A stretch of 64,000 bases of DNA. Source: Candidatus Falkowbacteria bacterium. Its GTDB lineage: Bacteria > Patescibacteriota > Patescibacteriia > Patescibacteriales > UBA12075. A program made the position numbers and the translations under genes. Where the stretch lies: contig DOSJ01000004.1 of assembly GCA_003514005.1 (NCBI GenBank), positions 101,533-165,532 of the forward strand. The letters are read 5' to 3'. The notes under the pieces are model-generated. The model saw only the letters and a list, made by a program, of their open reading frames with translations. It ran no database searches and was not told the DNA's origin. Shown piece after piece: positions 2,673 through 62,905 of the stretch (its first letter is position 1; each line of letters starts with the position of its first letter).

Positions 2673-4020
2673 AATAAAAATCTAATATGTCGGCGACAAT
2701 AAAAGAATCTTTTAAAATATCGGAGCGTTTGCAAACTATGTTTCCATGAGCATATTTATCTAAAATAACACCTAAATTACGTTGGTCTGAAAGCCATTCA
2801 TTGGTAAGCGATACGCCATTTTTGTCCTGTTGAGTTAATTGCTTTTTCGCTTCTTTGAGAAAATCCTCACAAACTTGATCTTGTTTAGCTTTTTTGCCAT
2901 CGCCTCGATTCTCGTAATGGACACGAGCCGCAATTTCAACCAATAATCGAAGTGCCATTCCAAGAAAGGGCAATATAGCATCATTGTTTTGACTTTTTTT
3001 ATCAATATCCACCAGAGCACGGTATAAATCATTTACCTTACCTTGCTGTAAAGAAAGGGTTCGTCCAAAAAGCTCATCGGCTGTTTTAGTGACCGGTGTT
3101 TTGCGAGCGATTTTTAATTTATAATCAGTGGCTATTCCTACTTTTCCAAAAAGATCTGTTTGTTTCTTGCTTTCGGCCTCTGTTATTTCGGTCGATGCCC
3201 GATCGAAGTCTTTATCAGAAATACTTTTTAAATAATCAAGTATTTCTTTGTTATTCAAACGAGAAAATAATTTGCCATTATACTGGCCATTTTTTAACAC
3301 ATCCCAAACAACCACTTTTAACTTTTTTTCAAAATCAGTATCTTTAATTTTCAATTTTTTATTTCCGTCAAAAGAAAAACCAAAAAATTCTTGAGCCGGT
3401 GTTTGCCCGATCAATCTCCAGAAAGTTGTCACATAGCCGGGCCCCAGTACTGATTCTTTTAATTCATTTGCTATTGTAAGACTGTTAATAACCTTTGTTA
3501 TTCCAACCCTTATCAACTCTTTCTCTCCGGCTTTTCCTCGACGTTCCTTGTGATGAGCTATTTCATTAGAGCCCCACGATACCTCATTGTTTTGATTAAG
3601 ATGTTTTCTTTCAATAAAGCGATAGCCTTCTTCCAAGTCCTCGGTTACGAGGCACTCTAATTCAAAATCCCCTGAAAGATTGATTTTTGATTTGATTTTT
3701 GAAAATTTTGTTTCTTGAGTGCCAGCCAGTTTGGGGTCTGCTAACAATTTATATGCGGCGACTCTTCTGTTACCTTCAAGAACAATATTGCGATCATTAA
3801 AACGCCAGACAACGATTTTCTCCAACTGAGGAAGATCAGCATCCTTTTCCATTTCGCTGGCCAATTTTAAAACCTGAAATTTACCAGTTATAAAGTGTTT
3901 TAATAAATCTTCCTCCGTAAGACCAAAATACTGATCAGAAAAACGAGCATTCTCGTCCCAGAGTGAGAGATCTTTAATCGCTATGTCTTTTTTGTTCCAT
4001 TTTGAATTGTGAGTGCTCAT
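2656..4020 (-). CDS. ParB/Srx-fold (ParB N-terminal-like, DndB/DGQHR-related) domain protein, 454 aa
   Basis: The N-terminus has IKDLSLWDENARF (equivalent of the ParB I..L...NPR box) and IVLEGNRRVAAYKLL (GxRR / DGQHR-like box). The remaining ~330 aa have no motif I recognise. Confidence 0.7.
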   Translation of the reverse strand: MSTHNSKWNKKDIAIKDLSLWDENARFSDQYFGLTEEDLLKHFITGKFQVLKLASEMEKDADLPQLEKIVVWRFNDRNIVLEGNRRVAAYKLLADPKLAGTQETKFSKIKSKINLSGDFELECLVTEDLEEGYRFIERKHLNQNNEVSWGSNEIAHHKERRGKAGEKELIRVGITKVINSLTIANELKESVLGPGYVTTFWRLIGQTPAQEFFGFSFDGNKKLKIKDTDFEKKLKVVVWDVLKNGQYNGKLFSRLNNKEILDYLKSISDKDFDRASTEITEAESKKQTDLFGKVGIATDYKLKIARKTPVTKTADELFGRTLSLQQGKVNDLYRALVDIDKKSQNNDAILPFLGMALRLLVEIAARVHYENRGDGKKAKQDQVCEDFLKEAKKQLTQQDKNGVSLTNEWLSDQRNLGVILDKYAHGNIVCKRSDILKDSFIVADILDFYFGKKN

Positions 4021-22582: not shown

Positions 22583-22590
22583 CTGGTTTT

Positions 22591-22675
22591 AAAAATTCTA
22601 AATTATAAGGTCTAATTTCTAATATTTTAAATCATTAATAGATTAGAAATTATAATTTAGATACTTAGAAATTAT
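22591..22675. repeat. hairpin repeat, family ttctaaattataa/gtctaatttctaa (copy 1 of 4, degenerate)
   Basis: Inverted arms aaattctaaattataaggtctaatttctaat / attagaaattataatttagatacttagaaatt. The same words occur at 27463, 48685 and 50478. Confidence 0.7.
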
Positions 22676-27453: not shown

Positions 27454-27462
27454 TAATGCAAA

Positions 27463-27531
27463 AAATTTCTAAATTATAATGTCTAATTTCTAAATTCTAT
27501 TTTAGAAATTAGACATTATAATTTAGAAATT
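27463..27531. repeat. hairpin repeat, ttctaaattataatgtctaatttctaa family (copy 2; ~31-bp perfect stem)
   Basis: aaatttctaaattataatgtctaatttctaaa / tttagaaattagacattataatttagaaatt. Confidence 0.85.
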
Positions 27532-27617
27532 ATTTTATTAAAATATGGCTTGGCCATGAGATAAATAGTGCTGTGAGTAAGCTCATAGTCCTGTAATTTC
27601 ATTGCCAAGCAGAACTA

Positions 27618-40248: not shown

Positions 40249-40422
40249 ATTAGGGAATAGGGATGGGAAATTAGGTACTTAGGTACTTAGGGCATAGGAG
40301 TTGGAAATTTAAGATTTATATAAAAAAATAAACTCAATTATATTTGAGTTTATTTTTTTAGATAAAATGATGATACCATACCCCCTATGCCCTAAGTACC
40401 TAAGTACCTAATTCCCTTATTA
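40249..40422. repeat. aggtacttagg-family long inverted repeat clamping a bidirectional terminator; right arm overlaps the trmD stop
   Basis: Left arm ttagggaatagggatgggaaattaggtacttaggtacttagggcatagg and right arm ccccctatgccctaagtacctaagtacctaattcccttatt. They enclose aaaaaaataaactcaa-ttatat-ttgagtttattttttt (40322-40360). Confidence 0.85.
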
Positions 40423-41111
40423 CTCCGTCTCCATTTCTCAATCTCCGCATGATTGCCAGATAACAAAACCTCCGGCACCTTATGTTCATGGCTATTGCTA
40501 TCAATAAAAACCTCCGGTCTTGTGTACTGAGGATATTCGAGCTCGCCCGGAATAGAATGCGATTCGTCTTGCGCGCTTTGTTCGTTGCCGAGTACGCCGG
40601 GCAATAGTCGCGTGATTGAATCAACCAATGCCATTGCGCCGATTTCACCGCCGGTCAAAACATAATCGCCGATTGAGATTTCTTCGTCAATGAATTCCGT
40701 TATTCTTTCATCTACGCCCTCATAGCGGCCGCAGACTAGAGTGATGTTTTCTAAGTTCGCGTATTCCTTTGCTTTTTGTTGATTCCATTTTTGGCCTTTG
40801 GCAGATAATAAAATAATTTTTGTATTAGGTATTAAGTATTTAGTATTGTGCAATTCAGGCTGTATATTATTGCTTAATACTTGATACTTAATACTTGATA
40901 CTGTTTTGTATAAAATATCGACTTTCATAACCATTCCAGCGCCGCCGCCGTATGGTGTGTCATCGACCGTTTTATGTTTGTCCGTTGTATAGTCACGCAG
41001 ATTGATAATATTTATTTTTATATTCCCTTGTTCTTGCGCGCGCTTAAGAATGCTCTCGTTGAAATAAGAGTTGAAAATTTCGGGGAAGATTGTGATTATG
41101 TTAAAAGTCAT
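40392..41111 (-). CDS. trmD: tRNA (guanine37-N1)-methyltransferase
   Basis: TIFPEIF, DDTPYGGGAGMVM, VCGRYEGVDERI, IGDYVLTGGE and LLSGNHAEIEKWR. Start taken at MTFNIITIFPE. The track start 41126 lies inside the MITE terminal repeat. Confidence 0.92.
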   Translation of the reverse strand: MTFNIITIFPEIFNSYFNESILKRAQEQGNIKINIINLRDYTTDKHKTVDDTPYGGGAGMVMKVDILYKTVSSIKYQVLSNNIQPELHNTKYLIPNTKIILLSAKGQKWNQQKAKEYANLENITLVCGRYEGVDERITEFIDEEISIGDYVLTGGEIGAMALVDSITRLLPGVLGNEQSAQDESHSIPGELEYPQYTRPEVFIDSNSHEHKVPEVLLSGNHAEIEKWRRSNKGIRYLGT

Positions 41112-41120
41112 ATATGCATC

Positions 41121-41255
41121 TGTCATTCCCGCGAAGGCGGGAATCTTGGTTTAAAAATAATAAAATATTTTAATTTTTTGAAGGTTGTAAAATCATTTCA
41201 AGAAAATAAATTCGGTGATTTGTTTACCGAGATTCCCGCTTTCGCGGGAATGACA
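41121..41255. mobile_element. MITE-like element, copy 1 (135 bp) with 26-bp hairpin-containing terminal inverted repeats
   Basis: tgtcattcccgcgaaggcgggaatct ... agattcccgctttcgcgggaatgaca. No ORF. Lies between khpA and trmD. Confidence 0.65.
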
Positions 41256-41355
41256 AAAGTGTTTATTCGTAGATTAGCATTTTTATTTTTATTTGACTAT
41301 CAAAAAGCCACGAACAAAATGTTGTGGCTTTTTGAATATCTGATTTTGTTTTAGA

Positions 41356-45298: not shown

Positions 45299-45477
45299 TA
45301 ATTAGTTAATTAGGGGCGATATAAAAACCGTTTTATCTGTATAAAACGGTTTTTTATTGAAAAAAATGTATTTGCCAAGCTTAAAAACGTGTTGTATACT
45401 GTATTAAGTACATTATTTAATAATTAGGTATTATAGATAATTCTTTGGGTAAATTTTTAAACGTTTTTTCCTTCACT

Positions 45478-45645
45478 TGTCATTCCCGCGAAGGCGGGAA
45501 TCTTGGTTTATTAATAACAAAATATTTTTATTGCAGGTTTGTTATGAAACTATTTTATCATATTTTTCTTTTGTTATTATAACACCGAGATTCCCGATCA
45601 TTTAGTATTAATTCCCTGCGGGGCCATGGAGTGTCGGGAATGACA
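45478..45645. mobile_element. MITE-like element, copy 2 (168 bp), right terminal repeat interrupted
   Basis: The left 33 nt are identical to copy 1 (tgtcattcccgcgaaggcgggaatcttggttta). The right end is agattcccg[39-nt insertion]cgggaatgaca. Lies upstream of ftsH. Confidence 0.65.
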
Positions 45646-47695: not shown

Positions 47696-48679
47696 ATGTC
47701 TTTATATCGCACAATTTTAAAACGAGCCTGGGATAACACTTGGCAACATAAATATTTGTGGTTTTTTGGGCTTTTTGCCGCATTGCTTGGCAATGGCGGA
47801 GAGCTTGAGCTTATTTTTCGCAATTATGACGGACAGGCGCGAGACGTTCTTTTTCCAACATGGCAAAGATTTGCCGAAACCGGAATATTCAACGGAAGCG
47901 CATTGTCAAATATCGCCAATTTGGCGCGTACAGAACCCTATACCTTATTTTTGGCTTTAACCACTTTATTTATCATTGTTTTACTTGTCATGTTTATTTT
48001 GTGGCTGACCATTATTTCACAGGTTGCTATCGTTCACAACACTGCCAAGATCAAACACGACAAAGAGCATGATTTTAAAGACGGGGTTATGCAGGGAATA
48101 AAGAATTTTTGGCCAGTGTTGGGTTTTAATCTGATAATCAAGCTGATTTCCGCTGTTTTGCTTTTTTTAATCGGTTTGCCGATTTTTTTCGGATTTGTAA
48201 AAACCACTTTTACGATAAATCTGACCTATGTTTTAATGTTTATAATTTTTATTCCAATCAGTTTGGTCTTATCGTTTGTGTTTAAATTTGCAATAGTGCA
48301 TACTGTGGTCAAAGGACAGAAATTTTTAGAATCAATCAAGTCCGGTTTTGAATTGTTCAAAAAAAATTGGCTTGTGAGCATGGAAATGGCTATCTTGCTC
48401 TTTTTTATTAATTTTCTAACTGGAATCGCTTTGTTAATGATGTTCTTGATTTTAGCAGTACCGCTTTTATTCGCGATTCTAATGTTTTCAAAGCTGTTTG
48501 CTTTTATAAATTTTTGGCTGTTTATCATGTCCGCAATAATTTTACTCTTACTTATGGTCGTTTTTGTCGGTTCAATGCTCTCAACATTCCAAATTTCCGC
48601 CTGGACGCATTTGTTTATGGAACTGGTCGGCAAAGGCGGCGTTAGTAAGTTGGTTAGAGTTTTTGGGAAAGAAAAATAG
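47696..48679 (+). CDS. polytopic membrane protein, hypothetical
   Basis: 327-aa ORF with ~6-7 hydrophobic helices. No catalytic motif recognised. Confidence 0.6.
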   Translation: MSLYRTILKRAWDNTWQHKYLWFFGLFAALLGNGGELELIFRNYDGQARDVLFPTWQRFAETGIFNGSALSNIANLARTEPYTLFLALTTLFIIVLLVMFILWLTIISQVAIVHNTAKIKHDKEHDFKDGVMQGIKNFWPVLGFNLIIKLISAVLLFLIGLPIFFGFVKTTFTINLTYVLMFIIFIPISLVLSFVFKFAIVHTVVKGQKFLESIKSGFELFKKNWLVSMEMAILLFFINFLTGIALLMMFLILAVPLLFAILMFSKLFAFINFWLFIMSAIILLLLMVVFVGSMLSTFQISAWTHLFMELVGKGGVSKLVRVFGKEK

Positions 48680-48684
48680 TTATT

Positions 48685-48763
48685 AATGTCTAATTTCTAA
48701 ATTATAATTACTAAAAAAGCATTAATAAAAAATTTAGTTATTATAATTTAGAAATTAGAAATT
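48685..48763. repeat. hairpin repeat, ttctaaattataa family (copy 3), upstream of the pilB-like gene
   Basis: aatgtctaatttctaaattataattactaaa / tttagttattataatttagaaattagaaattt. Confidence 0.8.
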
Positions 48764-48772
48764 TAGAGATTT

Positions 48773-50476
48773 ATGTCCGATATCCAATCAATTGAAGATT
48801 TGATCGCTTCCTCAAAGGGAGGCGGTTTTGATGATGAGAGCGCTTTGGGAAAATTTCAGGCAAAGCAAAAAGAGATCAATGTGAAAGAAGTAGAAAGATT
48901 AACTGAACAGAACGCGGTAAATTTGGGCGTGTCTTATATAAGTCTTTTTGGTTTTCCGATTAGTCCAGAGGCCCTGTCTCTGATCACCGAGCAAGACGCG
49001 CGCCAGTTTAATGTTGTTTGTTTTTTTTATGACGGCCAAAAAATCCGTTTAGGCGCGCTTGAACCGCATAGCGAGGCAGTAGTAAACAAACTCGAAGAGC
49101 TTTGCGCAACCTTTTTCTGCGAAGGCGAAACTTATTTGATATCCAAAAATAGTTTGGAATACGCGATAAGGCTGTATAACTCGATTCCAAAGGTTAGAGT
49201 AATTCCGCGCGGCGTAGAATTAACAGAAGATGATTTGAATAAATTCAGTGAAAAATTTTCCAGTTTTGCGGATTTGCAAAAAGAGATCAATCAGGCAAAA
49301 GTAACCGATATCGTAACCATGGTTATGGCGGCATCTATCAAGCTGGACGCTTCCGATATTCATATCGAAGCAGAAGAAGACGGCATAAAAGTGCGTTTTC
49401 GCGTTGACGGCGTTTTGCATGACGCTTCGGTAATCAGTAAAGATTTATGGAAAAAGATAATTTCACGCCTTAAAGTTATCGCCAAAGTAAAGATAAATAT
49501 TGCCGATAAGCCGCAAGACGGGCGCATGTCTATTATTACCGCGCATGATCGGATTGATATTCGCGTTTCTTTTTTGCCGACCAATTTCGGCGAAAGTGTG
49601 GTTATGCGTATTTTGAAAGCCAGCTCAGTCGGCTTGGCTTTTAATGATCTGGGCATCCGTGATCGCGCGTTTGAACAACTAAGGCGCGAAGTCGAGCGTC
49701 CGAACGGCATGATTATCACAACCGGTCCGACCGGTTCAGGGAAAACCACTACCTTGTATGCGATTTTAAAGAAATTAAATAATCAAGAAACAAAAATAAT
49801 CACGATCGAGGATCCGATTGAGTATCAGCTGGAAGGCGTTAATCAATCGCAGATTAGCGAGAAATACACTTTTGCTCAAGGTCTGCGCTCTATCGTGCGC
49901 CAGGATCCGGATATTATTATGGTTGGCGAAATTCGCGATTTGGAAACCGCCGAGATTGCAATCCAGGCTTCTTTGACCGGGCACCTGGTATTGTCCACTA
50001 TCCATACAAACGATGCCGCTGGCACTGTGCCGCGTTTCATATCCATGGGAACAAAGCCTTTTCTTTTGGCACCGGCTTTGAACGCGATGATCGGTCAGCG
50101 TCTGGTCCGCCGTATTTGTGAAAAATGCAAAGTTGTCGACGAATTGGATGAAGAAAAAAGAAAAAGAGCTTTGGATTATATCAAGGAAATTCCCGCGGCT
50201 GAGCGGGGCGAATTGGATTTTGACAAAATCGTATTTTATAAAGGCGCCGGCTGCGAGGCTTGCCAAGGCATAGGCTACAAGGGTCGGATCGGCATATATG
50301 AGATTGTTGTGGTTGACGAAGATATGGAAAAACTGATCTTGTCCGGAGCAGTTAATGAGTATGATATGCGCGCCGCGGCTGCGAAAAAAGGCACGCTTTC
50401 AATGGCACAAGACGGAATGCTCAAAGTTTTGGACGGAATAACTTCGGTTGAGGAAGTGTTTAGAGTTGCGGAGTAA
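48773..50476 (+). CDS. type II/IV secretion / type IV pilus assembly ATPase (GspE/PilB family)
   Basis: GPTGSGKTTT, IMVGEIRD, GHLVLSTIHTNDA, and the tetracysteine CEKC...CEAC. Confidence 0.92.
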   Translation: MSDIQSIEDLIASSKGGGFDDESALGKFQAKQKEINVKEVERLTEQNAVNLGVSYISLFGFPISPEALSLITEQDARQFNVVCFFYDGQKIRLGALEPHSEAVVNKLEELCATFFCEGETYLISKNSLEYAIRLYNSIPKVRVIPRGVELTEDDLNKFSEKFSSFADLQKEINQAKVTDIVTMVMAASIKLDASDIHIEAEEDGIKVRFRVDGVLHDASVISKDLWKKIISRLKVIAKVKINIADKPQDGRMSIITAHDRIDIRVSFLPTNFGESVVMRILKASSVGLAFNDLGIRDRAFEQLRREVERPNGMIITTGPTGSGKTTTLYAILKKLNNQETKIITIEDPIEYQLEGVNQSQISEKYTFAQGLRSIVRQDPDIIMVGEIRDLETAEIAIQASLTGHLVLSTIHTNDAAGTVPRFISMGTKPFLLAPALNAMIGQRLVRRICEKCKVVDELDEEKRKRALDYIKEIPAAERGELDFDKIVFYKGAGCEACQGIGYKGRIGIYEIVVVDEDMEKLILSGAVNEYDMRAAAAKKGTLSMAQDGMLKVLDGITSVEEVFRVAE

Positions 50477-50477
50477 A

Positions 50478-50549
50478 AAATTTCTAAATTATAATGTCTA
50501 ATTCCTAAACAATAAAATTTAGAAATTAAACATTATAATTTAGAAATTT
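50478..50549. repeat. hairpin repeat, ttctaaattataa family (copy 4), downstream of the pilB-like gene
   Basis: aaatttctaaattataatgtctaattcctaaa / atttagaaattaaacattataatttagaaattt. Confidence 0.85.
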
Positions 50550-50614
50550 TATATTTTAGGTATAAATATTAAGTATCACATGTATTATAAAAATATTGCA
50601 TGTAACGCAAAACT

Positions 50615-53987: not shown

Positions 53988-56900
53988 TTATCCAAGCGCT
54001 TTTTTCAAAAACTTACCAGTATGTGTATCGGTCTCCGCAACTTCAAGCGGTGTGCCTTGTGCAACAATATAGCCGCCTTTGTCGCCACCTTCTGGGCCGA
54101 GGTCAATGATGTGATCGACGGATTTTATTACGTCTAGGTTGTGTTCGATAATTAAGACGGTGTTACCTTTGTCAACCAGTTTGTTTAATACACCCAATAA
54201 GCGTTTAATATCTTCAAAATGGAGGCCGGTGGTTGGTTCGTCCAGAATATAGAGGGTTTTGCCAGTAGCGCGGCGCGAGAGTTCGCTAGCCAGCTTGATG
54301 CGTTGGGCCTCACCTCCAGATAGTGTCGTGGCAGATTGACCGAGTTTGATATAGCCTAGTCCAACCTCAAATAGGGTTAACATTTTGGTGTAAATAGTCG
54401 GGATATTTTTGAAAAAATCCATTGCTTCTTCGATCGTCATATTGAGTACATCGGAAATGTTTTTTCCTTTATAAAAAATATCAAGTGCTTCTTTGTTGTA
54501 TCTATGTCCATGGCAAACTTCGCATTCTACATAAACATCGGGCAAAAATTGCATTTCGATTTTAACCATGCCGTCGCCGGAGCAGGCTTCACAGCGGCCG
54601 CCGACAACGTTAAACGAGAAACGTCCGGCTTTGTAGCCTCTTATCTTTGATTCGGGTAAGCCGGCAAAAAGATCGCGGATAGGAGTGAAGGCGCCGGTAT
54701 AGGTAGCTGGATTGGAGCGCGGTGTTCGGCCGATTGGTGATTGGTCAATATCGATTACTTTATCAATAAAGCCCAGGCCTTCAATACGGTCATGTTTGCC
54801 TGGTTCGGCTTTGGCGCGGTAAAATTTTTTGCTCAAAGCCTTGGCAAGAATATCGGACATAAGGGTTGACTTGCCGGATCCGGATACACCGGTGATTGCG
54901 ATTAGCTTGCCCAAAGGAAATTCAACATCAATATTTTTTAGATTATGTTCGCTGGCGTTATAAATTTTGATCGCTTGCCGCAGTCCTTTGCGATAGGTTT
55001 TTGGGGCAATAATCGATTTTTTACCGGATAAATATTGCCCGGTCAAAGAAACCGTGCTTTTTTTGATCTGCGCTGGAGTTCCGGCCGCGATGATATTACC
55101 ACCATGTTCGCCCGCACCAGGGCCTACGTCAATTAGCCAATCAGCGGCATTCATGGTTTCTTCGTCATGTTCGACAACAATAACCGTATTACCGATATCG
55201 CGCAGTTTTTTGATAGTTTCGATTAGTCTTTTATTGTCTCTTTGATGAAGTCCGATTGAGGGTTCATCCAAGATATATAAAACTCCGACAAGCGATGTGC
55301 CGATCTGATTTGCCAAACGGATGCGTTGGGCCTCTCCGCCCGAAAGCGTGTTGGCCGCGCGGCCGATTGTTAGATAGCTAAGGCCGACATTGTTCAAAAA
55401 ATCCAAACGCGCGCAGATTTCTTTGATAATTTGGGTAGATATCTTTTTTTCTTTGGCGCTTAGCTCTTTGCTTTCCGCCATTTCACAAAAAAATTCTTTG
55501 GCTTTATCAATCGTTTTTGTGCTAACATCATGAATGGAATGGGAAAGAATTTTCACACCCAAAATCTCTTTTTTCAAGCGTTTGCCTTCGCAAGACGGAC
55601 AGATAAGTACGCGCATGTATTGCTCGATCTCTTTTCGTACCCAGTCGGATTCGGTTTGGTTGAAACGGCGTTCCAGATTTGGGACAACACCTTCAAATTC
55701 TGTCGAGAGCTCGCCGGAAAAGCGTTCGCTTTCGTAGTCAACGCTATAGTTTTTTTTGCCAGTGCCATATAGCACAATATCAAGCTGTGCCTTGGTCAAA
55801 TCTTTTATCAAAGTATTCAGATCAAAACCGTTTTTTGTAGCAACCGTACCAAGAATACGCATGAGCCAAGTTTGCCCGGTGGTAGTGCTGTGCGACCAAG
55901 GGCGGATTCCGCCTTGGGCGATTGTTAGGTTCTGATTTAAAATTAATTTTGGATCTATTTCAAGCTTTGTACCGATTCCGGAACACTCCGGACATGCGCC
56001 ATGGGGAGAATTAAACGAAAAATTGCGTGGTTCCAATTCAGGCAGACTGATGCCGCAATCCGGACAAGCAAAAAGCTTGGAATAAGTAATGTCTTTATTA
56101 TCCGCGCTTTTGCTTTCAGTCGCCCCTCCCCAGTCTTGGGAAGGGGATGGGGGTGGGGTGTTTTTTTTAATCGTAGGCGATACTGTTATCAATCCATTTC
56201 CCAAATCAAGTGCTTTTTCTACCGCTTCGGCAAGCCGTGCGCGGTCTTCGTTTCCATCCAGATTAAAGCGGTCAATAACTATTTCAACAGTATGTTTTTT
56301 TTGTTTATTTACTTCCAGGTCTTCAACCTCATCCAAAGTATAGTAAGAGCCATCAAAACGAACTCGGCTAAAACCGGCTTTGGCAATGCCGACCAAAATA
56401 TTTTTATGCTCACCTTTTTTGTCTTTGATTAATGGGGCAAGGATGGTAAGATTGGTTTTGGCAAACATCCGGGTTACGTTATCGACAATCTCGTCAACCG
56501 TATATTGGCGGATTTTTTTTCCGCATTCCGGGCAATGCGGTACGCCAATACGCGCGAAGAGTAGGCGCATATAATCATATATTTCTGTAATCGTACCAAC
56601 GGTCGAGCGTGGATTGTGCGGTGCCGTTTTTTGGTCTATTGAGATAGCAGGCGACAAGCCCTCGATCGAATCAACATCCGGCTTGTCCATAAGCCCGACA
56701 AATTGTCTGGCATAGGCCGAAAGTGACTCAACATATCGTCTTTGCCCCTCGGCATAGATAGTATCAAAAGCCAAAGAAGACTTGCCGGATCCGGAAAGTC
56801 CGGTAATCACGACAAATTTGTCGCGCGGTATTTCGACATTGATATTCTTGAGATTATGAACGCGTGCCCCCTTTATTTTTATTGAGTTATTGTTTGACAT
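53988..56900 (-). CDS. uvrA: excinuclease ABC subunit A
   Basis: Two ABC modules ([36 protein letters not shown] twice), zinc modules and 970 aa. Confidence 0.97.
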
Positions 56901-57065
56901 TTATATTATTCTTTAATTATTTAACGGATTTTATTATACATCAGTTTTTCGGGTAGCGCAAGGGGGAGTCGGTGATTTTTCTTTGATATTTTTTAGCTTG
57001 ACAAAAATAGGGAAAACATGTAGTATGAATTCAACAATTTCGCACATTTAATTTAAGGAGAAATT

Positions 57066-57698
57066 ATGATTAATTGTTTGTTCTTTGATTTTGGGAATGT
57101 TATTTATTTTGCGGATCAGATGATTGCGTATAAAAAATTTTCTGAGTATAGCCCTTTTTCAGCTGAAAAAATATACGAGCTGATTTATTTGGGTGGTATT
57201 GAGAAAATTCCAGATGAAGGAGGGACTTTTAGTAATTTTTATCTAGAATCTATTAAGAAAATCAAGGCCGACAAGAAAAAATTAACATCTGATATCTTTT
57301 TAGAAATTTGGTGTAATATTTTTAGCCCCGTTAATGGAATGGATGAATTACTTCAAAAAATAAAACCCGATGTTAGAAAAATTCTTGTATCAAATACAAA
57401 CTTTATCCATTGGCAAGGGACAATGTCAAAGCTTCCTTTGATAAAAAAGCATTTTTCAGAAAAAGAAAATCAAGTGCTCTCATTTCAAGTCGGCAAAAGA
57501 AAACCAGATAATTTGATGTGGATTGAAGCATATAAAAAGGGAAAGTGTAATCTGGATGAAGCATTGTTTATCGATGACGTGCCCTTGTTCGTAGATTCTT
57601 TTCAAATATTTGGGGGGAAAGGAATTGTGTTTAATGCAAAAACTGATTCCATTTATTTTCTAGAAAAAAAATTAAAGACGTACGATGTTTTAATTTGA
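57066..57698 (+). CDS. HAD-superfamily hydrolase (YihX-like)
   Basis: FFDFGNVIYF (motif I variant DxGxV), SNTN (motif II) and FIDDV (motif IV). Confidence 0.75.
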   Translation: MINCLFFDFGNVIYFADQMIAYKKFSEYSPFSAEKIYELIYLGGIEKIPDEGGTFSNFYLESIKKIKADKKKLTSDIFLEIWCNIFSPVNGMDELLQKIKPDVRKILVSNTNFIHWQGTMSKLPLIKKHFSEKENQVLSFQVGKRKPDNLMWIEAYKKGKCNLDEALFIDDVPLFVDSFQIFGGKGIVFNAKTDSIYFLEKKLKTYDVLI

Positions 57699-57832
57699 AA
57701 AAATAAATTATTACATAAAATAAACCTCGACAGACTTTGTTCTGAGCGAGGTTTTTTAGTTTGACAAAAATCAAGATTACCTGTATTGTAATTTCAACAA
57801 TTCAGAAACAAATAAAAAAGGAGAAAAATAAA

Positions 57833-58015
57833 ATGAGCCCTTTACCATTTATTATTGTAGGAAAAATTGTTTTGATTCCGGCGTATTTTGCCATTAAAAA
57901 ATTTGGCGTAAAAACTGTTGGTACTGCTCTTTTAAAAACCGCTGTTGGTACCACAATACTAACGGCAACATATAAAGGATTAAGGAGTATTCATGAAAAC
58001 AAAAGAGCAAATTAA
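57833..58015 (+). CDS. small membrane protein (60 aa)
   Basis: AAGGAGAA SD 8 nt before the ATG. Two hydrophobic helices. The track start at 57761 is the TTGACA of a likely promoter. Confidence 0.5.
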   Translation: MSPLPFIIVGKIVLIPAYFAIKKFGVKTVGTALLKTAVGTTILTATYKGLRSIHENKRAN

Positions 58016-58247
58016 AGCAGATTTGCGTTTTGGCAGATTTGCACGAATTGCAATGATTATATTGATAGTTATTTTGGCGTTAGTAGCAGTATTATCATCT
58101 ATTGATATCTATTTTTTTGGTCTTAATAAGTTCAATTTCGTATTACTTTTTGCTCCATCAATTTTAGTCTACAATTGTTTTTTGGTCGTTGAAATAGCTG
58201 ACAAGAATATTTTAAGGCTAAAAAATATTCCACTTAAGGAAGAGTAA
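57993..58247 (+). CDS. small membrane protein (84 aa)
   Basis: TAAGGAG SD. Two TM helices. Overlaps the upstream ORF by 23 nt. Confidence 0.5.
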   Translation: MKTKEQIKADLRFGRFARIAMIILIVILALVAVLSSIDIYFFGLNKFNFVLLFAPSILVYNCFLVVEIADKNILRLKNIPLKEE

Positions 58248-58258
58248 AAGGAGAGTTA

Positions 58259-58435
58259 GTGAATACAGAAAATATAGATAAGGAAAATTTTGGTTTTATC
58301 GAATTTTTAAAATCATTTCCAACTATGCTATTTCTGGTTTTCGTAGCCATGATGGTAGCCTTCTTCCTTTATGCTTGCATGACTGATGTGGGCACGATGG
58401 AGTTTGCTCGTTTTTTTATCGGGACGTTTATATGA
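58259..58435 (+). CDS. small membrane protein (58 aa, GTG start)
   Basis: Own translation (below the track cutoff): (M)NTENIDKENFGFIEFLKSFPTMLFLVFVAMMVAFFLYACMTDVGTMEFARFFIGTFI. AAAGGAGAG SD. Followed by the terminator at 58468. Confidence 0.45.
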   Translation: MNTENIDKENFGFIEFLKSFPTMLFLVFVAMMVAFFLYACMTDVGTMEFARFFIGTFI

Positions 58436-58467
58436 CGAGATATAGAGAAAATTTTAACTACCAATCA

Positions 58468-58501
58468 AACCCCGCTTGTAATATAGCGGGGTTGTTTTTT
58501 T
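58468..58501 (+). terminator. intrinsic terminator
   Basis: aaccccgct-tgtaatat-agcggggtt followed by gttttttt. Confidence 0.8.
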
Positions 58502-58599
58502 AAATATAGAAGTATTTTTACAAATTGACAAAATCAATTATTTATAATAAATTAAAGTCCTGAACATTCAAAATAGAATATTAAAAAAGGAGAGAGAAA

Positions 58600-59463
58600 A
58601 TGGAAAAAATTAAAAAATTGGTAAGCATTATTTTTGTATTTATGTTTTTTGTATCCGGACTTGCTTTTGCAGAGGATAAGATTCGAGTATTATTATCCGA
58701 GGGACAGCTTAAAAGCATAAGTGTCAAAAGAGTGAAGGATGTTGAGGTGCAAATTTCTTTCAGCGATGAATTATCGGGCTTGCATGAATATACTATAAAA
58801 GAAATTGTACAAAAACTTTTGATTGAAAAACAGCCGTTTTACTACAATGAAAGATTAAATACGCTAAGTAGTTTATTACCGCTTAGGATTAACCGGGAAT
58901 ATAGTTATAAAATATTTCTAGATCAGGAAAAGAATCTTATATATGGGGAAAAAATATTAAATGAACCCATTTCTGCATCTAAAATCTGGAGATGTTATAC
59001 AACGATGTTGCTATCATTATTTATTCTGGTACTGCCAATGATTTTTAAAATTACAATCCATTTTTATTCAAAAAATAAAGGATGGCTAAGCGTGTTTTTT
59101 GTTTCATTATTTTTGATTATGTTTGTTATTCAATTATGTATAGTGGGTGAATTTATAATGATTTTATTTTTAGCACAGATAGTTTTAATTGGCGCTTCAG
59201 TATTTATAAATGATGTATTTTTAGAAAAAATCAGCATAAGAAAATTTCCAGCAATTTTTGCCAGTACATTTTTGATGACAATTTCCGTTTTAGCAGGAAT
59301 TGTAGTACTGGTGAATATTCAAATTGCACAATCTATTAATTTTCTTCTAGTTCCGTATTTTATTTATTTTTTTATCACTTGCATATTGTTTTTTATTGTA
59401 TATTTCTTGGAAAAAAGAAAAACACAAACAATAAAATGCGATTTTCAATTTGATAGTAAATAA
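58600..59463 (+). CDS. membrane protein (287 aa): signal peptide, ~120-aa exposed domain, ~5 TM
   Basis: GGAGAGAG SD (58589-58596) 3 nt before the ATG. Signal-like N-terminus IIFVFMFFVSGLAFA. Confidence 0.6.
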   Translation: MEKIKKLVSIIFVFMFFVSGLAFAEDKIRVLLSEGQLKSISVKRVKDVEVQISFSDELSGLHEYTIKEIVQKLLIEKQPFYYNERLNTLSSLLPLRINREYSYKIFLDQEKNLIYGEKILNEPISASKIWRCYTTMLLSLFILVLPMIFKITIHFYSKNKGWLSVFFVSLFLIMFVIQLCIVGEFIMILFLAQIVLIGASVFINDVFLEKISIRKFPAIFASTFLMTISVLAGIVVLVNIQIAQSINFLLVPYFIYFFITCILFFIVYFLEKRKTQTIKCDFQFDSK

Positions 59464-59481
59464 AACAAAAATTTAACCTCT

Positions 59482-59510
59482 GGGCAGTGAACGCTTCACT
59501 GCCCTTTTTT
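59482..59510 (+). terminator. intrinsic terminator
   Basis: gggcagtgaa-cgc-ttcactgccc followed by tttttt. Confidence 0.8.
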
Positions 59511-59511
59511 A

Positions 59512-59563
59512 TTTGCAAATTAGAGTTTTTATGTTAATATATACCCATGATTAAAGAAAAAAT
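59512..59563 (+). repeat. 52-bp direct repeat A (copy of the valS promoter/leader)
   Basis: tttgcaaattagagtttttatgttaatatatacccatgattaaagaaaaaat. 50/52 identical to 60169-60220. Contains TTGCAA-N16-TAATAT. Confidence 0.9.
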
Positions 59564-59571
59564 ATTTGATA

Positions 59572-60042
59572 ATGGAAAATAATAATTTTGAAAATATAAA
59601 AAAATCAGCAGAAAGTTTTTATGGAAAAATTGGAAAAGTAAATTGTCCGGCTTTGAAAGAATTAGTGTATTTTAACTCGGAGGGCTTTAATCATTTGTTG
59701 TATAAAAATAAAAGCGTTCGAACGCAAAAAGAACAGGCGCTGAAATTAAAATTTTTAGCAATTGGAAAAGAGATAATTGAATTGTCGACAACTTATCAAG
59801 AATACGACGAATCTCTGAAAGAAATTCAGGTTAAACAATTTAAAAGGAAGGTGATGAAAACCGTAATGATTAAATATTGGGGATTGGTGGCTATTATCAG
59901 AGGTTGTAGAGTCAAAGTAATTGTGAGACAAATTGGTGAGGGTAAAAAGCATTTTTGGAGCGTGATGCCAACGTGGGGATATGATCATTATAGAGATACA
60001 AAATTTGTAATAAAATCAAAAGGAAATCTTGATGAAGATTAA
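59572..60042 (+). CDS. hypothetical protein (156 aa from ATG) inside a cassette bracketed by 52-bp direct repeats
   Basis: Track ORF (TTG start at 59566; ATG at 59572 MENNNFEN...). Motifs VYFNSEGFNHLLYK and KHFWSVMP. Family not recognised. Confidence 0.55.
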   Translation: MENNNFENIKKSAESFYGKIGKVNCPALKELVYFNSEGFNHLLYKNKSVRTQKEQALKLKFLAIGKEIIELSTTYQEYDESLKEIQVKQFKRKVMKTVMIKYWGLVAIIRGCRVKVIVRQIGEGKKHFWSVMPTWGYDHYRDTKFVIKSKGNLDED

Positions 60043-60043
60043 A

Positions 60044-60071
60044 AAACACCACCTAAAGGTGATGTTTTTTT
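60044..60071 (+). terminator. intrinsic terminator
   Basis: acaccacc-taaa-ggtgatgt followed by ttttttt. Confidence 0.7.
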
Positions 60072-60168
60072 GTATGCCTGCCTTCAGCTTAACGTTGAGC
60101 CGAATAGGGCTGACGCCCCACAAGCATACTTATATGATATAGAATATTTTATTTTTTGTCAATTGAAA

Positions 60169-60220
60169 TTTGCAAAATAGAGTTTTTGTGTTAATATATA
60201 CCCATGATTAAAGAAAAAAT
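60169..60220 (+). repeat. 52-bp direct repeat B (valS promoter/leader)
   Basis: tttgcaaaatagagtttttgtgttaatatatacccatgattaaagaaaaaat, 12 nt upstream of the valS ATG. Confidence 0.9.
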
Positions 60221-60232
60221 AAGAATAAAAAT

Positions 60233-62905
60233 ATGACAAAAGAAATGCCAAAGGCTTATGAGCCGGGCTTGTATGAGGATGATATTTATAAACAGTGGGA
60301 AGAATCCGGAGTTTTTCAGCCGGAAAATTTGGAAAATACTAGTGGGACGTATTGCAATGTTTTGCCGCCGCCGAATGCGAATGGTGAATTGCATTTGGGG
60401 CATGTTTCCGGATATGTGGCTATGGATTTGATGGGGCGCTATCAACGGATGCTTGGTAAAAAAACCTTGCTTTTGCCGGGCAAAGACCATGCCGGAATCC
60501 AGACCCAGGTCGTTTATGAAAAGAAAATAAAAAAAGAAAGAAATATTTCACGTCACAACCTGGGGCGCGAAAAGTTTTATAATGAAATTTATGATTTTTG
60601 CATTGATCGCTCGGCCTATATGCGAACGCAGGAAAAAAAGATTGGCTTGTCCGCGGATTGGAGTCGAGAGAAATTTACCATGGATCCCAAAATCGTTAAT
60701 AATGTCCTCGACACTTTTGTAAAAATGTATAACGAGGTTGATGAAGACGGGAACAGGATGATCTATCGCGGTGAACGGATTATCAATTGGTGTCCAAGAT
60801 GCGCGAGTGCTTTGGCAGATGTTGAGGTTGAACATGAAGAACAAAAAGCAAAATTATTCTATTTTAAATATGATAAAAATTTTCCAATAACAATAGCAAC
60901 TACTCGTCCGGAAACAAAACTGGGCGATACTGCGATTGCGGTTAATCCAAAAGATGAAAGATACAAGGAATATATTGGCAAGACATTTCAAGCGAATTTT
61001 TGCGGGATTGATTTGAATATCAAGATTATCACAGACCATAATATTGATTTGTCTTTTGGCGCTGGTGCACTTGGTGTTACTCCCGGGCATTCTGCAATTG
61101 ATTGGCAGATGGCACAGGTGAATGACCTAGAAATAATCAAAGTAATTGGCGAAGATGCAAATATCAGGCCTGGTTTTGGCGAATATTCTGGCAAGAGCGT
61201 TCTCGAGGCGCGTGAAATGATCGTTGCAAAACTAAAAGAACAAGGTTTGATTGAAAAAGAAGAAGAGTTTGATAATAATCTTTCAGTCTGTGAACGTTGT
61301 AAAACCGCTATTGAACCATTGGTTTCAGAGCAATGGTTTGTGAATGTTGACCACAAGAATTTTTCCTTGAAAAAAGAAGCGCGGAAAGTTATTGAAAACG
61401 GAGAAATAAAAATTTATCCAGAAAGATATAAAGACATTATGCTTTCTTGGATTGACAATGTTCATGACTGGTGCATTTCGCGCCAGATTTGGTGGGGACC
61501 AAGGATACCGGCGTGGTATCGGGAAATTTTCGATTTACGATTGCCGAATGCCGATTTGGATGATAATAAATCGAAAATCGAAAATCGGAAATCGGAAATT
61601 TATGTCGGTATCGAAAAACCAGACGGCGAAGGATGGATGCAGGATTCTGATACATTTGATACTTGGTTTTCATCCGGGCAGTGGGCTTATAATACGCTTG
61701 GGTTTCCGGAGGGAAATGATTATAAAGAGTTTTATCCGAGCGACACCATGATAATGGGACGGGATATTTTGCCGTTTTGGGCGTTTCGGATGATTATTTT
61801 GAGCATATATCGTACAAAGCAGATTCCGTTTAAAAATTTGTATTTTACCGGGTTGATTCGCGATGGACAAGGAAAGAAGATGTCAAAGTCAAAAGGGAAT
61901 GGCATTGAACCGCTTGAGATGATCGAAAAATTTGGAACCGATGCTGTGCGATTATCTATGATGATCGGGGCGACACCGGGGAATGATATGAATCTGAGCG
62001 AGGAAAAGATCGCGGGGTTTCGGAATTTGGTGAATAAGCTTTGGAATGTGGCGAGATTTGCGATTTCCGATTTGCGATTTCCGATTGTTGAATTAAATCA
62101 AGATATGCTTACTGTTTCTGATAGATATATTTTAGAAAAAATGAAATTTTTAATTAGAGAGGTAAGTGGTGATTTAGAAGAATATCGATTTTCTCAGGCA
62201 GGTGAGAAACTTCGCGAATTTACATGGAATGATTTGGCGGATTGGTATATTGAGGCTAGTAAGTTTGCTGTAAGCGATGGGAAAGACTTTGTTTTGATAA
62301 AGATTTTAACTGATTTATTAAAACTATGGCATCCGTTTATTCCTTTTGTTACCGAAGCGATTTGGCAAGAACTTGATTCTGATAAAAAATTAATTGTGTC
62401 GCGTTGGCCGCTTGCTTTGGATTATGAAGTTTATAAAACAAAGCAAGAAGATATTGATAATTTTGAGATAATAAAAAATATTATAATTGCGATTCGCAAT
62501 GCGCGTTCGGAAAATAAGGTGGAGCCGGCAAGGAAGGTTAAAGCGCTTATTGTTGCTGGTGAATATTTTGATTTGATAAATGATAATGAAGCTTTGCTAA
62601 AGGGGATGAGGACAGGGGTAGAGAAGTTAGAAGTTGTAAGTAAGAAGTTAGAAGAAAAAGATGAAAATGAAACTATTAAAATAGTTGTGGGAGAAATAAT
62701 AATATATTTATTTGGAGCGATAGACAAAGAAAAAGAAGCGGAGCGGATTAAAAAAGAAAAGGCGAATTTGGAAAAACAGATTGAAGTTTTGCGTGTAAAG
62801 CTTGGTAATAAAGATTTTGTGGAACGAGCGCCAGAGGCTATTGTAAAAACTGAACAAGAAAGACTTTTAAAAATGGAGAGTGAGTTGGTGAAATTGGGAG
62901 AATAA
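60233..62905 (+). CDS. valS: valine--tRNA ligase
   Basis: PPPNANGELHLGH (HIGH), KMSKSKGN (KMSKS), CISRQIWWGPRIPAWY, and a C-terminal coiled-coil. Confidence 0.97.
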   Translation: MTKEMPKAYEPGLYEDDIYKQWEESGVFQPENLENTSGTYCNVLPPPNANGELHLGHVSGYVAMDLMGRYQRMLGKKTLLLPGKDHAGIQTQVVYEKKIKKERNISRHNLGREKFYNEIYDFCIDRSAYMRTQEKKIGLSADWSREKFTMDPKIVNNVLDTFVKMYNEVDEDGNRMIYRGERIINWCPRCASALADVEVEHEEQKAKLFYFKYDKNFPITIATTRPETKLGDTAIAVNPKDERYKEYIGKTFQANFCGIDLNIKIITDHNIDLSFGAGALGVTPGHSAIDWQMAQVNDLEIIKVIGEDANIRPGFGEYSGKSVLEAREMIVAKLKEQGLIEKEEEFDNNLSVCERCKTAIEPLVSEQWFVNVDHKNFSLKKEARKVIENGEIKIYPERYKDIMLSWIDNVHDWCISRQIWWGPRIPAWYREIFDLRLPNADLDDNKSKIENRKSEIYVGIEKPDGEGWMQDSDTFDTWFSSGQWAYNTLGFPEGNDYKEFYPSDTMIMGRDILPFWAFRMIILSIYRTKQIPFKNLYFTGLIRDGQGKKMSKSKGNGIEPLEMIEKFGTDAVRLSMMIGATPGNDMNLSEEKIAGFRNLVNKLWNVARFAISDLRFPIVELNQDMLTVSDRYILEKMKFLIREVSGDLEEYRFSQAGEKLREFTWNDLADWYIEASKFAVSDGKDFVLIKILTDLLKLWHPFIPFVTEAIWQELDSDKKLIVSRWPLALDYEVYKTKQEDIDNFEIIKNIIIAIRNARSENKVEPARKVKALIVAGEYFDLINDNEALLKGMRTGVEKLEVVSKKLEEKDENETIKIVVGEIIIYLFGAIDKEKEAERIKKEKANLEKQIEVLRVKLGNKDFVERAPEAIVKTEQERLLKMESELVKLGE

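Follow-up and report, generated by a model that had tools for sequence, protein, structure and literature searches.

In type I toxin-antitoxin systems with convergent genes, such as par (Fst/RNA II) of pAD1 and txpA/RatA and bsrG/SR4 of Bacillus subtilis, the toxin gene and the antitoxin RNA gene run toward each other and end in a common terminator. Type III systems of the ToxIN kind carry a tandem-repeat antitoxin RNA upstream of the toxin gene on the same strand, the toxin being an endoribonuclease of known fold. Among mobile units, integron cassettes form arrays next to intI and carry attC sites that are conserved in structure but not in sequence, and the insertion sequences IS1634 and IS1549 are 1.5-2 kb long, encode a large DDE transposase, have terminal inverted repeats, and occur in many copies per genome. 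At the insertion sites of IS1634 and IS1549, direct repeats of variable length (8-514 bp) have been described with no mechanistic model (PMC2266710). LPD3 is a domain of the polyvalent proteins of phages and conjugative elements, to which the defining paper assigns no function (Iyer et al. 2017, PMC5512222). Here we analyze a locus upstream of valS in a Candidatus Falkowbacteria bacterium (64,000 nucleotides of GenBank assembly GCA_003514005.1, contig DOSJ01000004.1, positions 101,533 to 165,532 of the forward strand, the whole of which is referred to as the window), in which a gene for a 156-amino acid (aa) protein and a small-RNA gene lie between two direct repeats. The two genes constitute a module, composed of a gene for a basic, distantly LPD3-like protein of ~157 aa and a convergent RNA gene of ~89 nucleotides (nt), that is widespread in Patescibacteria. 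We favor, with a probability of about 0.5, the reading that this is an accessory, single-copy protein-RNA module that would act as a pair and would have been inserted into the valS leader in one duplicative event.

Results

The protein gene and its linked small-RNA gene

The module comprises the following features of the window.

59572 to 60042, plus strand: gene for the 156-aa basic protein, annotated as hypothetical protein US83_C0003G0044 of Candidatus Falkowbacteria GW2011_GWC2_38_2...
60041 to 60071: bidirectional intrinsic terminator common to the open reading frame (ORF) and the small RNA, consisting of an A run, a hairpin, and a T run
60041 to 60129, minus strand: small-RNA gene of ~89 nt, its ends placed from the promoter and the T run
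60134 to 60162, minus strand: promoter of the small RNA, of sigma-70 type (TTGACA-17-TATCAT, in agreement with the consensus at 11 of 12 positions)

An earlier note on this DNA, made from the letters alone, had pointed out a GC-richer segment with terminal complementarity at 60072-60130; the structure is there, and we recognize in it not a cassette end but a conserved, putative small-RNA gene on the minus strand with a promoter of its own. The terminator that the note had placed at 60044-60071 extends over 60041-60071 and consists of a hairpin between an A run and a T run. The predicted fold of the RNA is a tight three-way junction with helices P1 (7 bp), P2 (5 bp, with a GUCA loop), and P3 (7 bp), after which come AACAAAAA and the terminator. 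A covariance model (R1), built from 70 distinct sequences, gave 91.5 bits at 60031-60132 of the minus strand; over 70 distinct sequences, pairing is kept in 100% of the cells of P1, 100% of those of P2, and 99.8% of those of P3, and changes on both sides that preserve pairing occur at column pairs 6-61, 9-58, and 16-25. As far as sequence can tell, the RNA gene is on the minus strand, because the promoter reads leftwards and because the many G-U pairs of the helices would be A-C mismatches if read on the plus strand. Of 150 loci, 149 have the -10 box of the RNA promoter (TAnnnT) at the conserved position, and 116 have a -35 box (at least 4/6 matches, 16-18-nt spacing).

Rfam 15 gave nothing at gathering score in the window, and a permissive search returned nothing credible (E <= 10 in the window region, E <= 1 in 10 other loci). 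A hammerhead or other self-cleaving ribozyme was ruled out by eye, the junctions holding only 1, 1, and 2 nt, and neither signal recognition particle RNA nor 6S RNA gave a model match. In the literature on LPD3, on Patescibacteria/Parcubacteria RNA motifs, and on long target duplications, no description of the protein-RNA pair was found.

The linkage of the two genes is strict. In all 87 homolog loci the RNA directly follows the protein gene on the minus strand, and an element of ~58 nt, far more conserved than the protein, stands after the terminator of every homolog fetched; a strict regular expression finds this RNA element in 75 of the 87 loci and the covariance model in the other 12 (75-98 bits), and no protein gene without the RNA was seen among these 87. 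A metagenome scan with a 28-nt RNA core returned at least 120 loci. Among the matches listed (120 RNA loci), 109 show the protein gene just upstream and three lie at the end of a contig; in the other eight, the RNA and terminator are accompanied by a remnant of the protein gene or by none of it. Of the protein gene, these RNA-only loci (L102, L109, L168, L179, L191, L198, L204, and L206) retain a 3' remnant at most. Several of them are located beside MNT/HEPN-like, HicAB-like, or LAGLIDADG genes, as judged by eye from N-terminal sequences. A scan of 2.9 million viral contigs gave 0 matches to the exact 28-nt core, and there is thus no evident sign that phages carry the module.

The earlier note had envisaged the same cassette at other loci, and the ORF is indeed found elsewhere in unrelated contexts, with one copy seen per locus or contig. 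Among 277 flanking genes there is no recurrent neighbor family: the commonest type, NYN/LabA-like (assigned by eye from N-terminal sequence), accounts for 6, followed by reverse transcriptase and serine recombinase with 3 each. The reverse-transcriptase genes, on the strand of the RNA, abut the module 5-7 nt past the RNA promoter (L027, L051, and L157), serine-recombinase genes abut it in L042, L144, and L205, and one database protein, P0071, was called as a resolvase fragment fused to a family protein; these cases are too rare to be regarded as part of the module. In L010, the small-RNA promoter is directly followed by two tRNA genes on the minus strand (3619-3776).

In 75 of 163 loci, 32 of which have it exactly, a site resembling a DnaA box (TTATCCACA with no more than one mismatch; written also as TGTGGATAA) is found just past the -35 box of the RNA, whereas 0.017 would be expected; its position peaks 67-72 nt downstream of the first base of the RNA core. 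Control of the RNA promoter by DnaA is probable for about half of the loci. The window copy lacks the site because the right repeat begins at that point.

The protein is one of a large family, with a median pI of 9.9, whose members stand alone and measure ~157-159 aa. A first search gave 133 clusters at 90% identity; species-representative genomes contained 257 stretches that match, and at 50% identity the family comprises 1,387 clusters, without exception of small proteins. Residues G38, F39, H41, R50, Q76, E77, K115, R119, F128, S130, P133, W135, and G151 are invariant in the alignment, the polar ones among them being H41, R50, Q76, E77, K115, R119, and S130. The AlphaFold model (pLDDT 86) consists of an N-terminal alpha/beta part and four long antiparallel strands and has no hydrophobic helix. 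Foldseek against the PDB gave no significant relative (best E 0.38), and hence none of the RelE/BECR or nuclease folds that the earlier note had suggested, and a PDB sequence-profile search likewise gave none. PHROGs, PADLOC, and NCBIfam had no matches to the 156-aa protein, and no transposase, recombinase, or nuclease match was obtained in Pfam, NCBIfam, PADLOC, PHROGs, or PDB. The window protein aligns over residues 5-92 with positions 2-86 of the LPD3 profile (PF18798) at 14.6 bits (E 0.037), below the gathering score of 27. The same profile is matched by 21 of 53 family members at E <= 0.01 (best 1.9e-6), and when folds were compared with those of viral proteins, polyvalent proteins that contain LPD3 came out best (probability up to 0.9, with weak E values of 0.045-0.17). 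From these profile and fold comparisons, the 156-aa protein would at best be a remote relative of LPD3.

The module is bracketed by copies of the valS leader

The flanks of the module in the window hold the following features.

59482 to 59504, plus strand: intrinsic terminator of the upstream 287-aa membrane-protein gene (10-bp stem with 6 GC pairs, then TTTTTT), the left edge of the reconstructed empty site
59511 to 59564, plus strand: left repeat copy, a duplicate of the valS promoter by alignment with the valS leaders of L092 and L216; -35 at 59513-59518, extended -10 at 59532-59540 (TAATAT at 59535-59540), 15-mer ATGATTAAAGAAAAA at 59547-59561
59547 to 59582, plus strand: predicted mini-ORF (MIKEKIFDNGK, stop), overlapping the ORF ATG at 59572 out of frame
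60168 to 60221, plus strand: right repeat copy, the working valS promoter; -35 at 60170-60175, -10 at 60192-60197, 15-mer at 60204-60218
60204 to 60236, plus strand: predicted mini-ORF (MIKEKIRIKI, stop), its TGA overlapping the valS ATG at 60233 (ATGA)
60233 to 62905, plus strand: valS, valine-tRNA ligase, 890 aa

The earlier note had reported 52-bp repeats, identical at 50 of 52 positions, around a cassette of 605 bp. Repeat and cassette both stand, with their sizes corrected: the direct repeat is 54 nt long (59511-59564 and 60168-60221) with an identity of 52/54, and the cassette between the copies measures 603 bp (59565-60167). Each copy holds, in order, TTGCAA, a 16-nt spacer ending in TGT, TAATAT, six bases, and ATGATTAAAGAAAAA, so that the promoter-like TTGCAA-N16-TGtTAATAT and the start of an upstream ORF (uORF) are present in both as described, and the uORF of the upstream copy does reach the start region of the 156-aa ORF. 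The ATG of the mini-ORF, 7 nt past the -10 box, is the predicted transcript start. The left copy is the sole promoter-like site ahead of the 156-aa ORF in the window.

The 52-mer and a 25-mer core have only these 2 matches in the 64-kb window, whereas shuffled sequences lead one to expect 0 (at most three mismatches). An assembly artefact, which the earlier note had listed as grounds for abandoning its interpretation, has in its favor only the general risk of metagenome assemblies, and a collapsed repeat would not yield two copies differing at two bases. The 156-aa protein is moreover encoded on 24 contigs of other assemblies, two of which were compared and are identical to the window over 9,429 bases; because independent assemblies carry the identical sequence, an artefact is excluded for practical purposes, and the probability of an artefact or a chance match is negligible.

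In two pairs of relatives, L092/L093 (ValS 76% identical) and L216/L217 (75%), a single copy of the leader precedes valS with no cassette; the leader of L092 and L216 reads TTTACA-N17-TGnTAAnAT-N6-ATGATTAAAGAAAAA. Because these two relatives have one leader copy and no cassette, we interpret the repeat, on the strength of the alignment, as the duplicated valS promoter and start of the valS leader. The single-repeat site that the earlier note had expected in relatives was thus encountered at 75-76% ValS identity, and the conserved synteny of two repeats and gene that would have spoken for an ancient duplication was not, since L092 and L216 are without the cassette. An origin of the repeat as the module's own promoter was considered on account of a similar TGTTAATATA in L001 and rejected; L001 has no 15-mer and aligns poorly, whereas the L092 and L216 leaders align well. 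Conservation of the leader is limited to its first 15 nt (ATGATTAAAGAAAAA), beginning at the predicted transcript start. In L092 the mini-ORF reads MIKEK and ends 9 nt before the valS ATG, and in L216 it reads MIKEKYL and ends ~30 nt before it; because both end well before the valS start, the translational coupling of uORF and valS proposed earlier is not a conserved feature, although stop and start do overlap in the window.

Other relatives carry other genes at this position. An MNT/HepT pair abuts the valS start in L090/L091 (ValS 83-84%), a gene for a 563-aa SLFN/AlbA_2-HATPase protein lies between the same, unduplicated leader and valS in L214 (ValS 73%), and a UbiA-family gene (Pfam PF01040) is upstream of valS in L216. 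Farther upstream, synteny is kept, with a uvrA-like gene in L090 and L214 and a 208/210-aa HAD-like gene in L214 and L216. Because relatives carry different genes before valS while this synteny persists, the stretch between the 210-aa HAD-like gene and valS (56900-60200) is a variable low-GC island, the GC content of 56.9-60.2 kb being 23-33% and that of the flanks 37-48%. The spacer ahead of valS in L214 contains a tandem duplication of ~95 nt.

These data bear on the possibility that nothing was inserted, i.e. that the two genes are an old chromosomal pair and that the promoter was duplicated locally, the copy being kept by selection because it drives the ORF. The large and widespread family, the single copy of the pair, and the same arrangement in all 24 contigs of the population would suit such a history. 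It is nevertheless improbable, given that relatives retaining the uvrA, HAD-like gene, and valS synteny have other genes in place of the pair, that the closest protein homolog (71% identical) sits between uvrB and an LTD-domain gene, and that neighbors are unrelated in the 277 flanking genes. A non-tandem promoter copy exactly at the far side of the pair would also need two coincident events, and the bracketing pattern recurs in about ten unrelated loci.

Bracketing repeats at other loci

The 700 nt on each side of the pair were compared by blastn, with shifted positions as controls. Direct repeats around the pair were found at 17 of 133 loci against 10 of 283 controls, and repeats of at least 40 nt at 12 of 133 against 3 of 283 (p = 1.4e-4); ~90% of the loci have no bracketing repeat. 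Unique two-copy repeats measure 54 nt in the window, 123 in L021, 63 in L035, 49 in L016, 87 in L017, 57 in L031, 42 in L084, 72 in L106 (identical copies), 76 in L151, 57 in L184, and 33 in L194. The duplicated sequence is in every case a promoter or an end of a neighboring gene: the promoter and 5' start of the downstream gene in the window and L184, the 3' end of the upstream gene in L035 (murA) and L031, and the 5' region of the upstream minus-strand gene in L084, the neighboring gene being intact in each of these five. The inserted segments, of 603-1,212 bp, have no terminal motif in common, and their breakpoints fall 0-547 nt before the ATG on the left and 5 to ~330 nt past the -35 box of the RNA on the right. 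A TAnnnT box ending 3-9 nt ahead of the ORF ATG, and so implying a leaderless mRNA, is present in 96 of 122 loci; where the repeat directly adjoins the ATG, as it does in the window and L035, it takes the place of the ORF's own promoter.

An empty site for L021 was sought through TypA homologs and none was found, the closest being 87% identical with an unrelated downstream region; TypA is unsuited to this purpose because it is too conserved. Between typA and the left 123-nt repeat, L021 has a tandem array of ~14-15-nt units (catgagagcattggaa...; 2480-2700), and the repeat itself holds GC-rich segments like cttcggaggtcaag, the same type occurring near other modules (L031 and L005). A further repeat of ~80 nt (GCGCGACYTAGTGGAYGAAGTGAGAACT...ATAATGGKTATATTT) stands beside terminators in L193 (257-2949) and L071 (2889-4339), and also in L067, L117, and L178; the protein-RNA pair is one of several successive small units that it sets apart, and it could represent a cassette array or a common promoter/operator.

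A self-mobilizing element would account for some of this pattern. The 157-aa protein would then be a new small transposase or nickase, perhaps aided by the RNA, whose widely staggered cuts leave long duplications of variable length. The locus-specific direct repeats of 33-123 nt that bracket the module far above shifted controls would fit, as would the one-step duplicative insertion that the essential valS requires in the window, the many invariant polar residues of enzyme-like character, and the precedent of IS1549 and IS1634 with repeats of 8-514 bp (PMC2266710). We nonetheless consider this unlikely, since the breakpoints vary and there are no fixed element ends or terminal repeats, there is only one copy per locus or contig, none of the protein databases searched gave a transposase, recombinase, or nuclease match, an RNA that does not vary cannot direct insertion to targets that do, and about nine-tenths of the loci have no repeats. 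A classical transposon is likewise argued against by the variable ends, the lack of terminal repeats and of a transposase-like protein, and the single copy. An insertion sequence or transposon was also set aside as an identification, there being no family match and no conserved termini for segments of 603-1,212 bp with repeats of 33-123 nt and one copy per locus.

The sequences of the repeats speak to another route, of the Campbell type, by which recombination between the repeats would excise a circle (cassette plus one repeat) and the circle, or an anchored linear donor, would re-enter relatives and regenerate the repeats. At the murA 3' end of L035, 3 of 3 repeat differences are synonymous, and in L031 the same holds for 3 of 4 changed codons, as would fit two alleles each evolving under coding constraint; the 49-nt repeat of L016 also follows the module in L203, in another downstream context, so that a copy can travel with the module. 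Past the repeat, the two window copies continue like two leader types, the left one running TTTG like the L214/L216 leaders and the right one like L092. These three observations lead us to prefer recombination with donor DNA over clean staggered cuts, each of them resting on few bases. As a full history the excision and re-entry scheme is doubtful, however, because it leaves the first insertion at each site unexplained, because a donor of promoter, cassette, and valS with no second promoter would cut off the essential gene, because the numbers of substitutions are very small, and because no circular junction or donor sequence was observed.

Other repeats in the window

GC-rich hairpin copies (TGTCATTCCCGCGAAGGCGGGAATC...), in direct and inverted orientation, are located at 41110-41266 and 45477-45555, in intergenic positions near trmD, rpsP, and an S1-domain gene, and look like a REP-like dispersed repeat. 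An AT-rich palindrome family occupies four sites (22589-22661, 27460-27546, 48667-48771, and 50474-50563), with arms of ~35 nt that are 92-97% complementary, e.g. AAAAAATTTCTAAATTATAATGTCTAATTTCTAAA and TTTAGAAATTAGACATTATAATTTAGAAATT; these could be common operators, bidirectional terminators, or MITE-like elements. A 33-nt inverted repeat (40266-40298 and 40384-40416), 97% complementary and with its arms 85 nt apart, is located between trmD and a glycogen-synthase-like gene.

Discussion

What is most interesting in this analysis is the obligate link, across Patescibacteria, between an uncharacterized protein family and a small RNA for which we found neither an Rfam family nor a paper, the two being repeatedly flanked by long duplications of the target. 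The small RNA is more conserved than its partner protein and is tied to one protein family across a superphylum of uncultured bacteria, and the DnaA-box-like site hints at a tie of the RNA to replication status. If the pair is a toxin and its partner, or a defense module, it would give a first clue to what LPD3 does in phage polyvalent proteins. The bracketing repeats also illustrate a way in which a streamlined genome can take up a terminator-bearing cassette within the promoter of an essential gene while that gene stays expressed. That such long duplications recur is relevant to IS1634 and IS1549, whose long direct repeats have no explanation.

With respect to the insertion, the earlier note had proposed a mobile or recombination-inserted cassette that captured the expression signals of valS, with a duplication too long for an ordinary target-site duplication. 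The insertion and the duplicated promoter hold, and 54 bp is indeed too long, but no transposase, terminal inverted repeats, or fixed ends were found. In the history that we favor, the module would have been acquired horizontally as a single-copy accessory cassette, and one duplicative event would have brought it into the valS leader while copying 54 bp of valS promoter and transcript start. The left copy would now drive the protein gene, stripped here of its usual leaderless promoter, and the right copy would keep the essential valS expressed beyond the cassette terminator. A single duplicative event is the simplest history that we can infer: with a strong bidirectional terminator at the end of the cassette and the essential valS beyond it, an intermediate lacking the second promoter copy was probably not viable. 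The event would have been an accident of host replication or recombination, either template switching or the integration of donor or circular DNA through one-sided homology, and such an accident is favored over a self-encoded transposase because the breakpoints vary by locus, there are no terminal repeats, and each locus has one copy.

With respect to function, the protein may be an RNA-binding effector or toxin that is not tolerated without the RNA, and the RNA would neutralize or partner it. This interpretation is suggested by the obligate linkage, by the existence of RNA-only but not protein-only loci, and by the basic protein with its enzyme-like invariant residues, together with the compactness of the unit, its location in variable islands, and its distant tie to a conflict-system domain. 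The pair is possibly toxin-antitoxin-like.

Several observations weigh against this combined account of insertion and function. No empty site is at hand from a close relative, the nearest cassette-free leaders being those at 75-76% ValS identity; a metagenome scan with the upstream 287-aa protein found no close relatives of the locus, and the insertion is present in every contig that encodes this exact protein. The continuation of the left and right copies past the repeat is the opposite of the arrangement that a textbook target duplication predicts. In L071, L117, and L193, the bracketing repeat is the lineage-specific intergenic repeat of ~80 nt, which separates several genes, and in L127 it is a paralogous coding repeat; because some bracketing repeats are therefore not target duplications, the enrichment statistic is somewhat inflated. 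On the functional side, the RNA is near-invariant across phyla while the protein is only 45-55% identical, which is unusual for an antitoxin that co-evolves with a toxin and is not explained by the effector or toxin model. RNAduplex comparisons of the RNA core with its own mRNA at 15 loci gave energies no better than those of shuffled RNA, at sites that are not conserved, and pairing of this kind was rejected. Judging by its conservation, the RNA may also contact a conserved cellular component, or the pair may be a DnaA-controlled ribonucleoprotein with a housekeeping-like role. That it constitutes a new autonomous genetic element or a Patescibacteria-specific ribonucleoprotein system, in which a DnaA-controlled invariant three-way-junction RNA works with a small LPD3-like protein and spreads by a mechanism undescribed for bacteria, one that leaves long target duplications of variable length and no defined element ends, is a speculative proposal that we would expect to fail.

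Among described systems, the module shares with type I toxin-antitoxin pairs a compact protein gene and a small-RNA gene converging on one bidirectional terminator, as well as an accessory, patchy distribution in which the RNA can persist alone and the protein without the RNA was not found. It departs from them in its protein, which is soluble, basic, and 156 aa long in place of a hydrophobic peptide of <60 aa, in an overlap of only the terminator (~30 nt) with no conserved complementarity of RNA core and mRNA, and in the near-invariance of the RNA sequence across phyla. With type III systems it would have in common an effector protein and a structured RNA that acts by binding the protein, but the RNA is a single copy, convergent and downstream, with no tandem-repeat array, and the protein has no PADLOC match and no PDB fold match to ToxN or AbiE-like proteins. 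Because the protein is too large, antisense pairing is lacking, and there is no repeat array, we do not file the pair under type I or type III. Like an integron cassette, the inserted segment is a promoterless single ORF followed by a structured element behind a resident promoter; unlike in integrons, the sequence of that element is itself conserved, the element comes with a promoter of its own on the other strand, and the flanking repeats are copies of the target and not attC sites. There is no integrase gene beside the pair and no cassette array in the window, although no search was aimed at IntI. The long direct repeats of variable length at the insertion site recall IS1634 and IS1549, whose DDE transposase, terminal inverted repeats, and many copies the module does not have. 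Finally, whereas LPD3 is found in giant phage polyvalent proteins, the family described here consists of stand-alone, chromosomally encoded proteins of Patescibacteria that, unlike LPD3, carry an extra C-terminal four-stranded sheet.

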